14,654 nucleotides of DNA from a virus (IMGVR_UViG_2541047722_000008:1-14654); one strand, 5' to 3'; shown: positions 4,500-12,197, counted from the first letter of the stretch. Numbers and translations are program-made. Notes: a model not told the origin generated them from the letters alone.

Positions 4500-4557
4500 A
4501 AAAAGGGCGGCAGAGCAGTCACGGAGTAAAACTGATACCGCCAAACGTCACCAGAAA
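4500..4557 (-). ncRNA. dicF: DicF small RNA (ftsZ-targeting sRNA processed from the dicB operon transcript)
   Basis: Minus strand reads TTTCTGGTGACGTTTGGCGGTATCAGTTTTACTCCGTGACTGCTCTGCCGCCCTTTTT, matching the DicF sequence as I recall it, including the 3' GC stem (GGCGG/CCGCC) plus U-run. It lies between the ydfC-like and dicB-like genes as in Qin. Confidence 0.75.
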
Positions 4558-4898: not shown

Positions 4899-5117
4899 TT
4901 AACGCGGGTATGTAATCATTCTGGCAATGCTTAATGCCGCTGCTTTTTCCAGATTGGTGATATCCTGCTCCAGAGCGGACAGATTTTCAGCCTGCTTAGC
5001 CCTGGCTTCATTAGCCCATTTCAGATCCTGCGCTGCATTAATTTTCTGGCGCATCCACTCATAAAGTTCATCATCGGTATAGTCTGGCGCGATGATGACG
5101 GGTTCTCGTTTCTGCAT
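4899..5117 (-). CDS. ydfC: YdfC-like small protein of the dicB operon
   Basis: 72 aa, ATG 5117 with AAGGAG 5 nt upstream. Same length and operon position as Qin YdfC; no motif recognised. Confidence 0.55.
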   Translation of the reverse strand: MQKREPVIIAPDYTDDELYEWMRQKINAAQDLKWANEARAKQAENLSALEQDITNLEKAAALSIARMITYPR

Positions 5118-5209
5118 GTCGGCTCCTTGTGGTTAGCGTTGCCTGCTTTTAACCACGTCAGGCGAGGTGGTATCCTCTGAGGGGTCTGTTACTCGAGAGG
5201 AAATTGGTT

Positions 5210-5410
5210 ATGAATACAATCAAGTTTTCTTGCCCAGAATGTGGTGGCGAAGTCTTTGACACATCCTTTAAGCCGCAGGGCTCTGACAGTTTCGCGGGAG
5301 CCATCTGCAAAAATTGTGGTCACCTTGTAACTGAAGATGAGTCCTCGCAGTTCGATGACGAAATCGTTGACAATATCTTCGGTGCACTCACCAGAGACTT
5401 TCTGAAATAA
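5210..5410 (+). CDS. Small zinc-ribbon protein (CxxC-N19-CxxC) with acidic C-terminal tail
   Basis: 66 aa: MNTIKFSCPECGG…CKNCGH…DESSQFDDEIVDN. ATG 5210 with GAGG 9 nt upstream; codons look typical for E. coli; a strong hairpin follows the stop. It conflicts with the antisense ORF 5189..5545, so this is not certain. Confidence 0.5.
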   Translation: MNTIKFSCPECGGEVFDTSFKPQGSDSFAGAICKNCGHLVTEDESSQFDDEIVDNIFGALTRDFLK

Positions 5411-5456
5411 AGACGCATACCGCTTAGTTACCGCTCTGATAACTCTTACCTGTCCG

Positions 5457-5500
5457 GCAATGGCGCTGATGTCAATATAAAGCGCCATTGCTGCTTCTTT
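5457..5500 (+). terminator. Hairpin (11-bp perfect stem GCAATGGCGCT/AGCGCCATTGC, 13-nt loop) followed by a T-rich stretch; putative terminator for the zinc-ribbon gene
   Basis: Perfect inverted repeat 5457-5467 / 5481-5491, then TGCTTCTTTG. The U-tract is weak, so factor-independent termination is uncertain. Confidence 0.35.
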
Positions 5501-5619
5501 GCCGATCCCGTGATGCCTTCCATTCTGATGTTTGACTTCGCCCACTGAGAAATCCTCTGTTTCCCCTTAACGCCGGGGTAGCGGAACTGTTTGCTGAGAA
5601 CACCGTGCGGTGTCTTGAT

Positions 5620-5680
5620 GAATAAAATTTAGAATAACCTAAGATATGTGGTCAAGATTTTTATGTAGAAAAACCTAAGT
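5620..5680 (-). promoter_or_regulatory. Candidate repressor-controlled leftward promoter (PdicB / pL analogue) with CTTAGGTT operator half-sites
   Basis: Minus strand: -35 TTGACC (5655-5650), 18-bp spacer, -10 TAAATT (5631-5626). The 8-mer AACCTAAG (= CTTAGGTT on the minus strand) occurs at 5636-5643 and 5672-5679, the same motif found at the divergent promoter on the other side of the repressor gene. Confidence 0.4.
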
Positions 5681-5753
5681 TTTTTGATGTGAAAAACACA
5701 AGTGTTTGAAAGTTTGTGCTTTTTATTACAGGGTGTGGAGAAAAAAGGGAGGG

Positions 5754-6161
5754 TTATTTGTTTGCGCTTCTTTTGCGAGCTTTGAGTAGTTCTTCAAAAA
5801 GTTTGTTGAAATTTTCAACTCGAGCACGCATCTCTGACAACAGGGCCTTTTGCTCTGACTCAGGCAGTGCGTCGAACAGTTGAAGTAACTCTTTTTGATC
5901 TTCTGTCAGAAGGGCTGGCTGATTATCCGGGATCGGTTCGCCTGGTTGTTTATCTTCATCCCCAAAAAGAAGCCAAGTCGGTGAGCACTGAAGCGCTTGG
6001 CTCAGTGCGAATAATCTTTTCCCCGCCGGCTGTGTTTCATCTCTTTCCCATTGAGAAATTGTTACGTGAGCCACTTTGACCAGCTTACCTAATGCGGCCT
6101 GAGACAGTTTTAATTTTTTACGCCTATGTAAGAGGCGAGCACCGAAGGTTTCGTTTTTCAT
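5754..6161 (-). CDS. dicA: DicA-like prophage repressor (XRE-family HTH; no LexA-like peptidase domain)
   Basis: 135 aa with an N-terminal HTH (…LKLSQAALGKLVKVAHVTISQWERDETQP…) and the C-terminal segment …LFALSQALQCSPTWLLFGDEDKQP…MRARVENFNKLFEELLKARKR, closely matching my recollection of E. coli DicA (135 aa). No Ala-Gly/Ser-Lys autocleavage module. Confidence 0.85.
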   Translation of the reverse strand: MKNETFGARLLHRRKKLKLSQAALGKLVKVAHVTISQWERDETQPAGKRLFALSQALQCSPTWLLFGDEDKQPGEPIPDNQPALLTEDQKELLQLFDALPESEQKALLSEMRARVENFNKLFEELLKARKRSANK

Positions 6162-6237
6162 ATTAGGGAATTCTAATTTTTCTTGACTTAGGTTTCTCTA
6201 CGATCTAGTTTCCTTAGGAAAATCTAAGGAGCTCGAT
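6162..6237. promoter_or_regulatory. Divergent promoter/operator region between the repressor and the cro-like gene
   Basis: Plus strand: -35 TTGACT (6183-6188), 17-bp spacer, -10 TAGTTT (6206-6211), AAGGAG (6226-6231) 6 nt before ATG 6238. CTTAGGTT at 6187-6194 overlaps the -35; further copies CCTTAGG (6212-6218) and CTAAGG (6224-6229). On the minus strand a TAGAAT (6175-6170) lies ~8 nt before the repressor ATG, suggesting a leaderless PRM-like transcript. Confidence 0.5.
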
Positions 6238-6465
6238 ATGTTGAAAATTGATGCTATAGCGTTTTTTGGCAGCAAAACAAAGCTTGCCAATGCCGCAGGA
6301 GTTAGGCTGGCAAGCATTGCTGCATGGGGGGAACTGGTTCCTGAAGGTCGCGCGATGCGCCTGCAAGAGGCATCCGGCGGGGAACTTCAGTACGACCCCA
6401 AAGTTTATGATGAATATCGTAAGGCAAAGCGGGCGGGGCGGTTGAACAATGAAAATCACCCCTGA
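6238..6465 (+). CDS. dicC: DicC/YdaS-family Cro-like regulator
   Basis: 75 aa (MLKIDAIAFFGSKTKLANAAGVRLASIAAWGELVPEGRAMRLQEASGGELQYDPKVY…), divergent from the repressor, strong SD. Matches my recollection of DicC/YdaS-family proteins. Confidence 0.8.
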   Translation: MLKIDAIAFFGSKTKLANAAGVRLASIAAWGELVPEGRAMRLQEASGGELQYDPKVYDEYRKAKRAGRLNNENHP

Positions 6466-7000
6466 ACAGGTTTGTGAGGCTCTGGATGCCTGGGTATGCC
6501 GACCAGGAATGACACAGGAGCAGGCGACGATATTAATCACGGAAGCGTTCTGGGCTCTGGAAGAACGCCCGAACATCGATGTTCAACGTGTCACGTTTGA
6601 TGATGGTGTGGTTGATCAACGGGCGCTGGGCGTTAACCGGGTGAAGATATTCGAACGCTGGAAAGCTATCGACACCAGGGATAAGCGGGAAAAATTCACG
6701 GCGCTGATTCCGGCAATTATGGAGGCTATCCGGATCAGTGATTTCAGGTTGTATTGTGAAATTACTGACGGAAAAAGCATTACGTACATGATCGCCAGGT
6801 TAAACAAAGAATATGGCGATGTGGTGGAGTCCGGACTGCTTTTTGCAGATCCTGCTGTTGTGGAACGTGAGACTGACGAGCTTATAGAAAAAGCTATTGC
6901 TTTCAAGCATGCGTATCGTCAGCAATACCAACATTACTTTGCAGATAAACAAATATCTGTCTGGGGTTCGTATGAGTATCGATGCACTACGATGGGCTAA
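6449..7000 (+). CDS. YdaT-like protein (proposed CII-like regulator / putative toxin of the YdaS-YdaT pair)
   Basis: 183 aa, overlapping the end of dicC by 17 bp. The N-terminus (MKITPEQVCEALDAW…) and its position directly after the Cro-like gene match the YdaT family as I recall it; assignment is by synteny and general resemblance. Confidence 0.6.
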   Translation: MKITPEQVCEALDAWVCRPGMTQEQATILITEAFWALEERPNIDVQRVTFDDGVVDQRALGVNRVKIFERWKAIDTRDKREKFTALIPAIMEAIRISDFRLYCEITDGKSITYMIARLNKEYGDVVESGLLFADPAVVERETDELIEKAIAFKHAYRQQYQHYFADKQISVWGSYEYRCTTMG

Positions 7001-8012
7001 AAAGGTGAAAACCGGCAGTTCATCCAGTAAGTCAGTATTAACCTGGCTTGCTGATATGTGCGGTGCCGATTTGTGTGCATACCCGTCTGTATCTGCACTG
7101 GCAGAAGTAACGGAACTGAACAAAAAGACTGTGCAGGACAGCTTACGACACCTGATGGAGATTGGGTTAATTGTTGATACCGGTGAGAGAAAAGGCCGAA
7201 CAAAGCAGATCGTAGTGTACCGACTTATCGGTGTTGAAGAAAGTGTTACCGAGGCTGAATACACCCAAAAATGGGAGTCTTTAAAGGTGGGTAAAATTGG
7301 TACTGTTAATAAAAACAGTACCGAAAATGGCTATGTTTCAGCACAAAACAGACCCAAAAACGGAACTCTTAGCTGCATGGAAAATAACCAAAGACACCCA
7401 AATTTTCCATCAAAGACACCCAAAAATGGATCACGGAACCCAAAGGAACCCAAAGATCTAAACCCCACACATAACACACGCGAGAGTGCTCCGACCAGTG
7501 AGCAGGAAGTTTTGTCGTTACAGGCAGCACCCCCTGTATTCCTGGATGGCCTGAGCGAACCCATCGGAAAATTTCCGATGACCGATAGCTGGTATCCGTC
7601 ACGGGATTTTCGACGACGGGCTGCGTTGTGGGGGATGGCTTTGCCGGAGACAGAATTTACACCTGCTGAACTTGCCGCCTTCCGGGACTACTGGACAGCG
7701 GAGGGGAAAGTGTTTACGCAGATTCAGTGGGAGCAGAAATTCGCCCGTCACGTAAATCACGTCAGGGCGCAGGTTAAACCAGTCAGCAAGGGGGTAAACC
7801 ATGCAGCAGCACCAGGTGGCACCGCATCACGGGCAGTTCAGGAAATTCGGGCAGCACGTGAGCAGTGGGAACGTGAAAACGGATTTATCAGCGACGGAAA
7901 CGGCCTGGAAGCTGTGGGAGCTCATGGGGGAGGTTTATTCGAACCGCTGGACCCAGAAGAATGGGGCCGCACCTTCGAAGCTCTGGATTGCACAGATTGG
8001 CGCGATGACTGA
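6972..8012 (+). CDS. Replication initiator, O-like: N-terminal winged-helix DNA-binding domain plus C-terminal DnaT-like domain
   Basis: In-frame ATG 6972 (MSIDALRWAKK…) preceded by GGGG. N-terminal HTH (…SVSALAEVTELNKKTVQDSLRHLMEIGLIV…); C-terminal region (…FTPAELAAFRDYWTAEG…) resembles the DnaT C-terminal domain. The ORF has good E. coli-like codon usage up to its stop at 8012, overlapping the next gene by 212 bp. The track's start at 6897 is inside the previous gene. Confidence 0.7.
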   Translation: MSIDALRWAKKVKTGSSSSKSVLTWLADMCGADLCAYPSVSALAEVTELNKKTVQDSLRHLMEIGLIVDTGERKGRTKQIVVYRLIGVEESVTEAEYTQKWESLKVGKIGTVNKNSTENGYVSAQNRPKNGTLSCMENNQRHPNFPSKTPKNGSRNPKEPKDLNPTHNTRESAPTSEQEVLSLQAAPPVFLDGLSEPIGKFPMTDSWYPSRDFRRRAALWGMALPETEFTPAELAAFRDYWTAEGKVFTQIQWEQKFARHVNHVRAQVKPVSKGVNHAAAPGGTASRAVQEIRAAREQWERENGFISDGNGLEAVGAHGGGLFEPLDPEEWGRTFEALDCTDWRDD

Positions 8013-10469: not shown

Positions 10470-11021
10470 ATGACTGAATTAACAAAAGAGCAATTAATCG
10501 AAGAAGCTAAATTTAAAATAGCGATTGCGAAATGCCACCCTAATTCAGAGATGGCACGGGTAGAGGGTGAGTTATTCAAAATTGCACTGGCATCGCTGGA
10601 AGCGGAGCCTGTTGGTGAATTTTATGAGTATAAGCCGGGCGGCTGGTATCAGCATTCGGCTGGAGATAAAGCGCCAAAGTGGATACAACTCTACGCTGTG
10701 CCGCCAGCGCTCGCAGCACCTGAAGGACTGGTTAAAGCAGTGCGCTTTTATGAACAGGTAAAGCGTGAGAATCCACCAGTCGAAACAGGAGCATGGAAAG
10801 ATGCTGTTGATTGGGTACTCAAAGAGGCCTGCTGTGCTGTCATTCTGGGTAAAGCCGACAATCCATTAGCATCCAGTAACCAAGTTGGCGAATTAACAAT
10901 GTGGGTTAAACGACTGGTCAGTCAACTGAAAAAAGCTAATCCAGACTGCAAATTACCGGAGAAGGCGATGGACTACCTGAAGCGGAACGAACTGATAAGC
11001 GCGGAGGATGTTTTGCGATGA
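10470..11021 (+). CDS. Hypothetical protein (183 aa)
   Basis: Long ORF with E. coli-like codon usage, in the same orientation as its neighbours; weak SD; no motif recognised. Confidence 0.55.
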   Translation: MTELTKEQLIEEAKFKIAIAKCHPNSEMARVEGELFKIALASLEAEPVGEFYEYKPGGWYQHSAGDKAPKWIQLYAVPPALAAPEGLVKAVRFYEQVKRENPPVETGAWKDAVDWVLKEACCAVILGKADNPLASSNQVGELTMWVKRLVSQLKKANPDCKLPEKAMDYLKRNELISAEDVLR

Positions 11022-11388: not shown

Positions 11389-11449
11389 TGCTGCGGGTGC
11401 TTGAGGCTATCTGCCTCGGGCATGAACACCAACGGCAGATAGAGAAAAG

Positions 11450-11520
11450 CCCCAGTTAACATTACGCGTCCTGCAAGACGCTTAACATTAATCTGAGGCT
11501 CAATCCATGCTGAACACATG
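11450..11520 (-). ncRNA. sok: Candidate Sok antisense RNA (approximate boundaries)
   Basis: Minus-strand promoter-like elements: -35 TTGCCT (11550-11545), 17-bp spacer, -10 TAACCT (11527-11522), antisense to the mok SD/start region as in hok/sok loci. A GCGTC/GACGC hairpin and U-rich stretch lie at ~11440-11480. Ends not determined. Confidence 0.35.
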
Positions 11521-11719
11521 TAGGTTAGCCTCTTACGTGCCGAAAGGCAAGGAGAAGCAGGCTATGAAGCAGCAAAAGGCGATGCTAATCGCCCTGATCG
11601 TCATCTGTTTAACCGTCATAGTGACGGCACTGGTAACGAGGAAAGACCTCTGCGAGGTACGAATCCGAACCGGCCAGACGGAGGTCGCTGTCTTCACAGC
11701 TTACGAACCTGAGGAGTAA
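11507..11719 (+). CDS. mok: Mok (modulator of killing) reading frame: N-terminal extension in frame with hok
   Basis: ATG 11507 with GAGG 8 nt upstream; MLNTCRLASYVPKGKEKQA then reads into hok, as I recall for chromosomal mokC/hokC. Confidence 0.55.
   Translation: MLNTCRLASYVPKGKEKQAMKQQKAMLIALIVICLTVIVTALVTRKDLCEVRIRTGQTEVAVFTAYEPEE
11564..11719 (+). CDS. hok: Hok/Gef-family type I toxin
   Basis: 51 aa MKQQKAMLIALIVICLTVIVTALVTRKDLCEVRIRTGQTEVAVFTAYEPEE: the Hok/Gef signature (TM helix, then TRKDLCEV.IRTGQTEVAVF.AYE). AAGGAG 9 nt upstream. Confidence 0.9.
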   Translation: MKQQKAMLIALIVICLTVIVTALVTRKDLCEVRIRTGQTEVAVFTAYEPEE

Positions 11720-11788
11720 GAGACCAGGCGGGGGAGAAATCCCTCGCCACCTCTGATGAGTCAGGCATCCTCAATGCACCCACACTTA

Positions 11789-11820
11789 ACCCGCTTCGGC
11801 GGGTTTTTGTTTTTATTTTC
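11789..11820 (+). terminator. Rho-independent terminator downstream of hok
   Basis: ACCCGC-TTCG-GCGGGT hairpin followed by TTTTTGTTTTTATTTT. Confidence 0.65.
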
Positions 11821-11939
11821 AACGCGTTTGAAGTTTTGGATGGTGCCGGAATAGAATCAAAAATACTTAAGTAGCGCGCAGGGAGAAGAGGGATGGACCC
11901 CGAACAGGGGAGTGCTATTTATCTGGAAGGATTCTGTTG

Positions 11940-12197
11940 ATGAAAATCGAAGAATTACGTGAAATTTTTAGTGAAGATGGCCTCTATACTGTGCGCGTTG
12001 AGAATGGCGCTATTGTCAGCCACTGCCGTATTAAATGTTTACAGTCTCAACAAAGGAAGAGTGGAGCTGCGTTAATTCATTTTGTGGATGGGCTTGTGAC
12101 GGATGGTTTTATTTTGCGTGCAAATGAATTTGTCACATCGTTGCCGTCTCTGAAAAAAGCTGGGATTAAGGCTGGTTTTTCTGCTTTTGAAGATTAG
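11940..12197 (+). CDS. Hypothetical small protein (85 aa), possibly Rem-like by position
   Basis: ATG 11940 (the track starts 3 nt earlier at a TTG), GGAAGGA upstream. Located between hok and the DUF968 gene, where Qin carries rem; no motif recognised. Confidence 0.45.
   Translation: MKIEELREIFSEDGLYTVRVENGAIVSHCRIKCLQSQQRKSGAALIHFVDGLVTDGFILRANEFVTSLPSLKKAGIKAGFSAFED

Follow-up and report, generated by a model that had tools for sequence, protein, structure and literature searches.

The stretch of DNA analyzed here, hereafter the window, is 14,654 nucleotides long and is predicted to hold the switch that governs immunity in an E. coli lambdoid prophage of the Qin/PPompW type. Two divergent genes, one for a repressor and one for a small Cro-like protein, form the center of this switch (Table 1). 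The repressor matches the NCBIfam model NF007257 ("transcriptional repressor DicA") over its full length (residues 1–135) with 236.7 bits against a cut-off of 101, which places it in the DicA family, and it is 62% identical to K-12 DicA. Its N-terminal helix-turn-helix (HTH) domain is of the P22 c2 type—i.e. residues 2–69 match PDB entries 1adr, 2r1j, and 3jxb with E ~1e-21. The c2 residues Gln21, Val33, Ser36, and Gln37 are retained, while recognition-helix residues 31, 32, and 34 differ from those of P22 c2 (SNVA to AHVT). Pfam recognizes only HTH domains in this protein and no Peptidase_S24 domain, so the mark of P22-type autocleavage was not found. The Cro-like protein scores 167.9 bits against NF007282 (DicC; cut-off 130), as a divergent DicC-family gene would, and is 84% identical to K-12 DicC.

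Sequence comparison reveals that hundreds of E. coli chromosomes carry prophage DNA with 95–98% identity to region 5400–6700. The same region also matches "PPompW" prophages that were deposited together with Stx2a phages, and in these the central genes are annotated dicA and dicC. Of 5,426 complete E. coli genomes, 2,833 hold related sequences, among them the PPompW prophages that Stx-producing strains carry. DicA-type immunity, which controls cell-division inhibitors of the DicF/dicB type, is a very common type of prophage immunity in E. coli. In the window, both DicF and a ydfC-like ORF lie downstream of the leftward promoter, as in a dicBF-type operon.

Table 1. Candidate operators, promoters, and genes of the switch and its surroundings (positions in the window).
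Feature	Position	Strand	Sequence or match	Remarks
OL1 (candidate)	5627–5644		ATTTAGAATAACCTAAGA	Exact dyad, core 5629–5642; holds the 8-mer at 5636–5643 (minus)
OL2 (candidate)	5663–5680		ATGTAGAAAAACCTAAGT	One-mismatch dyad GTAG-N6-CTAA, one weak arm, core 5665–5678; holds the 8-mer at 5672–5679 (minus)
OR3 (candidate)	6161–6178		TATTAGGGAATTCTAATT	Exact dyad, core 6163–6176; adjoins the repressor start codon, overlaps the PRM-like -10
OR2 (candidate)	6186–6203		ACTTAGGTTTCTCTACGA	One-mismatch dyad TTAG-N6-CTAC, one weak arm, core 6188–6201; holds the 8-mer at 6187–6194 (plus)
OR1 (candidate)	6212–6229		CCTTAGGAAAATCTAAGG	Exact dyad, core 6214–6227; 6-bp arms, the only perfectly symmetric site
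PL-type promoter (dicBp equivalent)	5626–5655	minus	-35 TTGACC 5655–5650, 18-nt spacer, -10 TAAATT 5631–5626	From promoter scan
PR-type promoter (dicCp equivalent)	6183–6211	plus	-35 TTGACT 6183–6188, 17-nt spacer, -10 TAGTTT 6206–6211	
Candidate -10 of the repressor maintenance promoter (PRM-like)	6170–6175	minus	TAGAAT	8 nt before the ATG
Shine-Dalgarno of the cro-like gene	6225–6231	plus	TAAGGAG	6 nt before ATG 6238; overlaps the right arm of OR1
DicA-type repressor gene	5754–6161	minus	NCBIfam DicA, Pfam HTH_3	135 aa
DicC/Cro-like gene	6238–6465	plus	NCBIfam DicC, Pfam P22_Cro	75 aa
YdaT/CII-like gene and replication genes	Right of the DicC/Cro-like gene			
ydfC-like ORF	4899–5117	minus	phrog_1744	YdfC in the annotation of relatives
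DicF RNA	4505–4556	minus	Rfam RF00039, 76.7 bits	Downstream of PL
Rem-like candidate antirepressor	11937–12197	plus	73% identical to K-12 Rem	

The first-pass annotation had singled out the 8-mer CTTAGGTT as a candidate operator half-site repeated at promoters on both sides of the repressor gene. Its three copies are present exactly where they had been reported, one on the plus and two on the minus strand, and nowhere else in the window. Only 0.32 copies are expected by count, and none of 200 shuffles reached three. Specifically, the 8-mer corresponds to positions 2–9 of the good arm in OR2, OL1, and OL2, and so does represent one half of a site, namely the better arm; the unit itself is an 18-bp dyad rather than the 8-mer. 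Exact copies of the dyad core, TTAG-N6-CTAA, number 3 window-wide against 0.13 expected, a count that no shuffle attained. Two further cores carry one mismatch, in OL2 and OR2, and the sole other one-mismatch hit in the 14.6 kb lies at 10866. The 6-mer CTTAGG, with 5 copies found and 4.35 expected, is not enriched across the window, and four of its five copies fall inside the two regulatory stretches. CCTTAGG (6212–6218) and CTAAGG (6224–6229), previously listed as shorter copies of the motif, are both there, but they turn out to be the two arms of OR1 and not separate copies.

In all, we recognize five 18-bp candidate dyads, three between the repressor and cro-like genes (OR) and two at the leftward promoter (OL). 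The OR dyads fill the 76-bp gap that separates the two genes, with centers spaced by 25 and 26 bp, and the two OL centers lie 36 bp apart. OR1 starts right after the -10 of PR and hence covers the expected start site, while OR2 overlaps the -35 and spacer of the same promoter. OL1 spans the spacer of the leftward promoter and overlaps its -10; OL2 is located just upstream of the PL -35 and, when reverse-complemented, agrees with OR2 in 15 of its 18 bases. The OR3 dyad, whose arms read ATTAG and lack CTTAGG, had been overlooked in the first reading, as had the double role of 6225–6231, where TAAGGAG is also the Shine-Dalgarno of the cro-like gene.

A consensus promoter scan called PL, and called neither PR nor the repressor promoter. 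PL reads leftward into the ydfC-like gene and DicF, and is colinear with K-12 dicBp and P22 PL. PR falls under the scan threshold because its weak -10, TAGTTT, matches the consensus at only 3 of 6 positions, and its placement follows from position-for-position colinearity with the K-12 dicC promoter and P22 PR. Literature on K-12 mentions three operators at dicBp (PMC10448788); at the leftward promoter of the window we recognized two, and found no third. A palindrome at 5694–5707 (AAACAC-AA-GTGTTT) was considered for this role and rejected, as it lacks the TTAG/CTAA core and is not conserved in relatives. A CII-type reading of the repeats was also rejected, given that they are inverted with N6 spacing and not direct repeats of the form TTGC-N6-TTGC.

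The one DicA operator that has been tested by experiment is Oc of the K-12 Qin prophage (TTGTTAGTCATAACTAACAA), to which DicA binds in vivo, repressing dicC and stimulating dicA (Yun et al., PMC3441716). A single A-to-C change in Oc, from CTAA to CTCA, abolishes DicA binding, and this mutation arose repeatedly upon high-copy cloning of the promoter fragment (PMC3441716). For isolated Oa and Om, no DicA binding was reported in the in vivo assay, with the data not shown there (PMC3441716). The core of Oc is TTAG-N6-CTAA exactly, as in the window dyads, and Oc, which follows the -10, is the positional equivalent of OR1. Similarly, Om, within a TTGACT-17-TATCTT promoter, is the counterpart of OR2, and Oa (AGTTAGCTAATGCTAAAT), beside the dicA ATG, that of OR3. 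At K-12 dicBp, TTGACC is followed by TTAGTCATGGCTAA, the counterpart of OL1, and another site, 35 bp further upstream, is that of OL2. All five dyads are thus at positions homologous to K-12 sites, with the Oc core present at the equivalents of both dicCp and dicBp.

The likeness to Qin extends to the whole layout. Both systems have divergent repressor and cro-like genes, the core at about +5 and +55 relative to the repressor ATG, a PR -35 of TTGACT, and a PL with TTGACC and an operator across its spacer and -10. They also share a leftward operon of the dicBF type that includes DicF, a repressor of 135 aa that lacks a cleavage domain, a Rem-type antirepressor gene, and the lack of a Shine-Dalgarno before the repressor ATG. 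A lambda-like logic for DicA, DicC, and dicBp has been summarized for K-12 by Ragunathan and Vanderpool (PMC10448788). By contrast, the half-sites differ, reading CTTAG in the window but TTGTTAG in K-12, and the base flanking the core is accordingly C in one and G in the other; the arms CTTAG / CTAAG differ from those of K-12 DicA specificity (TTGTTAG / CTAACAA). Helix 2 of the repressor reads SQAALGK here and TQRSLAK in K-12, and OR2, with 1 mismatch, is much nearer to the consensus than Om, which has 2.

We also compared the layout side by side with that of P22, anchoring the two at their -35 hexamers. In both, the operators are 18-bp dyads, OR3 adjoins the repressor ATG, a TTGACT -35 overlaps OR2, and OR1 follows the -10; OL1 sits in the PL spacer and -10, and OL2 about 35 bp upstream. 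The window therefore has a tripartite OR of 18-bp dyads plus an OL, in the P22 arrangement. The half-sites are not those of P22, whose consensus is A-N-T-N-A-A-G (TTAAG-N4-CTTAA), in contrast to TTAG-N6-CTAA here. Likewise, c2 is a protein of 216 aa with a C-terminal LexA-like cleavage domain, while the 135-aa repressor of the window has a short C-terminal part of 65 aa. For c2 a solved complex with operator DNA is available (2R1J). The c2-domain homology and the matching P22 architecture argue that the system would work as P22 and lambda do; it belongs to the DicA branch, which lacks a LexA-like cleavage domain. As in the window, the repressor and cro genes of lambda (CI/Cro) diverge from a three-part OR, with an OL at the leftward promoter; the lambda cI mRNA, made from PRM, is leaderless. 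Neither the proteins nor the operators of lambda share sequence homology with those found here, and its operators are 17 bp long with another consensus.

Conservation of the dyads was followed in more distant genomes. A genome scan yielded nine usable diverged loci (from Pantoea, Erwinia, Enterobacter, E. ruysiae, E. albertii, Buttiauxella, two Citrobacter, and Yersinia), with repressors 53–74% identical to that of the window. All nine carry the dyads at the same offsets, and their N6 spacers and inter-operator DNA differ. When K-12 and the window are included (11 loci, 8 genera), 33 exact dyads fall within regulatory zones that total 3,124 nt, and the other 45,261 nt contain none. At shorter distance, a comparison of 5560–6260 with TUM1881 and PPompW_14040 shows 54 substitutions, none of which falls on any of the 40 core positions; the substitutions crowd into 5645–5657, in the gap between OL1 and OL2. 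A scan of IMG/VR added 79 loci with 35 distinct variants and produced the same picture. Among 24 distinct same-register OR sequences of the C class (defined below), 5 of 24 core columns vary, compared with 28 of 49 other columns (Fisher p = 0.005).

Individual sites follow this pattern. The position of OL1 is also occupied in all relatives, in K-12 dicBp, and in P22 OL1, and each of the relatives examined has an equivalent of OR3 at an unchanged offset, as do K-12 (Oa) and P22 (OR3). Relatives keep the arms of OR1 and vary its spacer, while the OR2 18-mer, its weak arm included, is nearly invariant in C-class relatives. OL2 retains its GTAG..CTAAG form and its distance of 35–36 bp from OL1. 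For OR2 and OR3, part of the conservation may stem from the -35 and -10 elements that overlap them, which confounds the comparison. Across genera, the weak arms of OR2 (CTAC) and OL2 (GTAG) are conserved, as are the spacings of 25–26 and 35–36 bp. Because the weak arms are themselves conserved, we suggest that OR2 and OL2 may be deliberately weaker sites, filled cooperatively.

A structured RNA was considered as the cause of the conserved DNA and rejected. Specifically, Rfam at gathering threshold returned only DicF and sok in the whole window, both outside the conserved operator DNA, a permissive Rfam scan of 5380–6300 gave no credible match, and a conserved hairpin in the PL leader folds no better than shuffles (z = -0.81).

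We put at roughly 85% the probability that the DicA-type repressor controls both early promoters through these candidate 18-bp dyads, as a P22/lambda-like switch. The earlier proposal of OL/OR-type operators for a DicA-like repressor gains support here from the NCBIfam DicA and DicC matches, the Oc core, the P22 layout, and the conservation of the cores. From the symmetry, enrichment, conservation, and promoter-relative positions of the sites, and from the homology of the proteins, we infer repressor binding, an order of occupancy, cooperativity, autoactivation, and a leaderless start, along the following lines. A dimer of the 135-aa repressor would recognize the 18-bp dyads by their core TTAG-N6-CTAA, with CTTAGG(T/A)(T/A) as its preferred half-site. 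Repressor on OR1 would cover the PR start site, on OR2 the PR -35 and spacer, and on OR3 the -10 and start of its own promoter, and OL1 and OL2 would hold it on and just upstream of PL, the presumed driver of the ydfC-DicF operon. Occupancy of OR1/OR2 and OL1/OL2 should then block RNA polymerase and silence both the lytic genes and those of the dicBF type. If the analogy with K-12 DicA at Oc holds, such occupancy may also stimulate the weak promoter of the repressor itself. OR3 would provide negative autoregulation, and could also be the site at which the DicC/Cro-like protein turns off the repressor gene.

The resulting map is that of a standard DicA/P22-type lambdoid operator set—i.e. a textbook switch that changes no concept, with a flank specificity unlike that of the tested K-12 operator. 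As such, its value is that of a precise operator map for a common type of prophage immunity in E. coli.

For the repressor gene, the mRNA is predicted to start 0–3 nt before the AUG. The TAGAAT hexamer, which the first-pass annotation had placed shortly before the repressor ATG as the sign of a leaderless PRM-like transcript, is present on the minus strand (6175–6170, with the ATG at 6161). From its position, transcription is predicted to start at about 6162–6164, leaving a leaderless or near-leaderless message. No Shine-Dalgarno was found between the hexamer and the ATG. TAGAAT stands 8–9 nt before the repressor ATG in all relatives, and the K-12 hexamer is TAGCAT. The "AATT" part of the hexamer falls in the OR3 spacer and is conserved, unlike the other operator spacers, which fits an extra constraint from the promoter. 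In K-12, dRNA-seq placed dicA among just five E. coli mRNAs whose leaders are <10 nt long (Romero et al., PMC4681348). A leaderless repressor mRNA thus receives indirect support by homology, from the conserved TAGAAT, the lack of a Shine-Dalgarno, and the leaderless K-12 dicA message. A convincing -35 was not found for this promoter, the best candidate being TAGAGA at a 19-nt spacer; such an absence fits the activator dependence reported for K-12 dicA.

Induction would proceed through the Rem-like antirepressor and not through RecA-dependent cleavage. In K-12, DicA repression is relieved by Rem (PMC10448788), and the gene content of the window includes the same apparent pairing of a non-cleavable repressor with a Rem antirepressor. 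Because the repressor has no autocleavage domain, the Rem-like protein is the likely route of induction, and in this the switch presumably differs from lambda, where cleavage is RecA-stimulated. A similar combination of a short non-cleavable DicA-like repressor and a small antirepressor is described for Gifsy GfoR/GfhR, whose antirepressors inactivate them and are LexA-controlled, according to the passage of PMC10448788 that cites Lemire et al. 2011. Control of the Rem-like gene by LexA in the Gifsy manner was rejected, since no LexA box was found upstream of it within 11700–11940. The comparison with Gifsy covers repressors and antirepressors.

A more frugal reading would accept only OR1, and perhaps OL1, as a real operator, with the other dyads kept through promoter hexamers or shared ancestry. 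It draws on the lack of in vivo DicA binding by isolated Oa and Om (Yun et al., PMC3441716), on the single non-consensus arm in each of OR2 and OL2, and on the overlap of OR3 with TAGAAT and of OR2 with TTGACT. Against this, the weak arms and the spacings of 25–26 and 35–36 bp are conserved across genera, OL2 is conserved even though it overlaps no promoter hexamer, and P22 has real operators at the homologous positions. Moreover, lambdoid switches normally include weak sites that fill through cooperativity. We consider a single working operator unlikely, but the alternative with most to be said for it. Because isolated Oa and Om were reported without DicA binding, occupancy of OR2, OR3, and the sites with weak arms may depend on cooperativity, may be limited to DicC, or may not take place.

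Variation in the operators among relatives falls into two classes. In the C class, operators of the form CTTAG..CTAAG go with a helix 2 of the type SQ(A/S)AL(G/A)K in 21 of 22 variants; these comprise the window, Pantoea/Erwinia/Enterobacter, and most IMG/VR variants. In the G class, made up of K-12, E. ruysiae, E. albertii, Buttiauxella, Citrobacter, and Yersinia, operators of the form (TT)GTTAG..CTAAC(AA) go with TQR(E/S).. in 8 of 9 variants. The base that flanks the core in OR1, OL1, and OL2 therefore co-varies with helix 2 of the repressor, and not with DicC. Between the two classes, OR3 and the left half of OR2 scarcely differ.

This co-variation bears on whether the dyads might chiefly be targets of the Cro-like protein DicC rather than of the DicA-type repressor. 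A passage of PMC10448788 states that multicopy DicC substitutes for DicA and that DicC overexpression represses dicA. DicC is also far more conserved than the repressor among the relatives compared (84–95% vs 61–67% identity), and the near-identity of OR3 in the two classes points the same way. However, DicA binding to the Oc core was shown genetically in K-12 (PMC3441716), and the flank base tracks repressor helix 2 rather than DicC. We regard a set of mainly DicC sites as improbable and, given that the two proteins of classical switches share operators, as extending the main explanation more than competing with it. That the dyads have no protein-binding function, and reflect chance, the Shine-Dalgarno (CTAAGGAG), and A+T-rich promoter DNA, is hardly credible, for while CTAAGG at 6224–6229 does belong to the ribosome-binding site and the CTTAGG 6-mer is not enriched window-wide, the 8-mer and the dyad both are, strongly; dyads at the 11 loci are confined to regulatory zones, symmetry and cores are held while spacers drift, and mutating one base of the homologous site in K-12 produces a phenotype (PMC3441716).

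Because the base flanking the core, C here and G in K-12, co-varies with repressor helix 2, the window prophage is probably of a different immunity type from K-12 within the DicA family. The recognition helix (helix 3) of several G-class repressors is the same as in the window (VAHVTISQWERDETQP), so the discriminating residues probably lie in or near helix 2, an assignment that is confounded by phylogeny. A literature search returned no experimental work on operators of the CTTAG type.

The Cro-like protein ignores this split. For example, it shares 92–95% identity with its counterparts at the E. ruysiae and E. albertii loci, where the repressors reach only 66–68% identity to that of the window and OR1 is of the G class. 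Because the Cro-like protein, OR3, and the left half of OR2 do not follow the classes, the pattern points to a recombination joint inside OR, and we hypothesize that DicC reads the shared core and OR3. Taken together, these features could form a two-state immunity code, in which the flank base is read by helix 2 and its surroundings (SQAALGK vs TQR(E/S)(A/L)A(R/K)) and DicC reads what both classes share, a proposal that we hold tentatively and with the odds somewhat against it. If it is true, DicC would be exchangeable between immunity classes, and a single EHEC genome could host several DicA-type prophages, with cross-talk through Cro and none between repressors. The C/G difference at the flank would in any case offer a handle on whether co-resident DicA-type prophages are hetero-immune.

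The small RNA DicF lies downstream of the leftward promoter PL, the equivalent of dicBp, and the predicted OL sites, putative operators for the DicA-type repressor, therefore control a dicBF-type cell-division-inhibitor operon. This RNA and three other features outside the operator regions are listed in the table.

Features of the window outside the predicted operators
Feature	Position	Strand	Evidence or remark
DicF small RNA	4505-4556	-	Rfam RF00039, 76.7 bits; downstream of leftward promoter
sok antitoxin RNA	11395-11569	+	RF01794, 113.5 bits
hok-type toxin ORF	11507-11719	+	overlapped by the sok RNA
ORF homologous to Qin antirepressor Rem	11937-12197	+	73% identity

Annotation of the first gene after PL differs among records, which place it either at 5189-5545 on the minus strand or at 5204-5410 on the plus strand. 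The PPompW records, from a group of related E. coli prophages, annotate the minus-strand ORF, for which there is a match to phrog_21318 (residues 20-118, E=1e-65), whereas RefSeq puts the gene of the closely related TUM1881 prophage on the plus strand, as an "ECs_2282 family zinc-binding protein".

In K-12, E. ruysiae, and E. albertii, the leader at the 5' end of the PL transcript (5545-5620, minus strand) is strongly conserved, especially at 5600-5613, and the conserved stretch includes the hairpin ACACCGCACGGTGT. The predicted fold of this hairpin is no better than that of shuffled sequences (z = -0.81), and the leader has no match in Rfam. The conserved leader could represent a nut/put-like element, a translational element, or a small ORF. 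On the other side of OL2, shortly after the stop codon of the repressor gene, we also find the palindrome AAACAC-AA-GTGTTT (5694-5707), which lacks the TTAG/CTAA core of the predicted operators, is not conserved among relatives, and may be a weak terminator stem.

Comparison of positions 6162-6237 with the E. ruysiae and E. albertii prophage loci (L006 and L007) reveals that the intergenic region between the repressor and cro-like genes is mosaic. Specifically, OR3, the -35 element of the cro-like gene's promoter PR, and the cro-like gene itself (92-95% protein identity) match those prophages. The repressor, at 66-68% identity, falls into another class, together with OR1 and the right half of OR2.

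In Qin, the cryptic K-12 prophage, hokD occupies the same position as the window's hok-type ORF with its overlapping sok. The E. coli TUM1881 prophage carries an additional exact dyad, GTATTAGGCTATGCTAACAA (L002 13231-13250), between hokD and the next gene, outside the immunity region; one of its arms is of the K-12 type (CTAACAA), and the window holds no equivalent of it. No LexA box is found in the 240 nt upstream of the Rem homologue. A perfect LexA-box-like palindrome, CTGTTAATAAAAACAG, is present at 7303-7318 (plus strand) within the replication (O/DnaT-like) gene, and it may be due to chance because matches with at most one mismatch number 7, compared with 4.8 expected.
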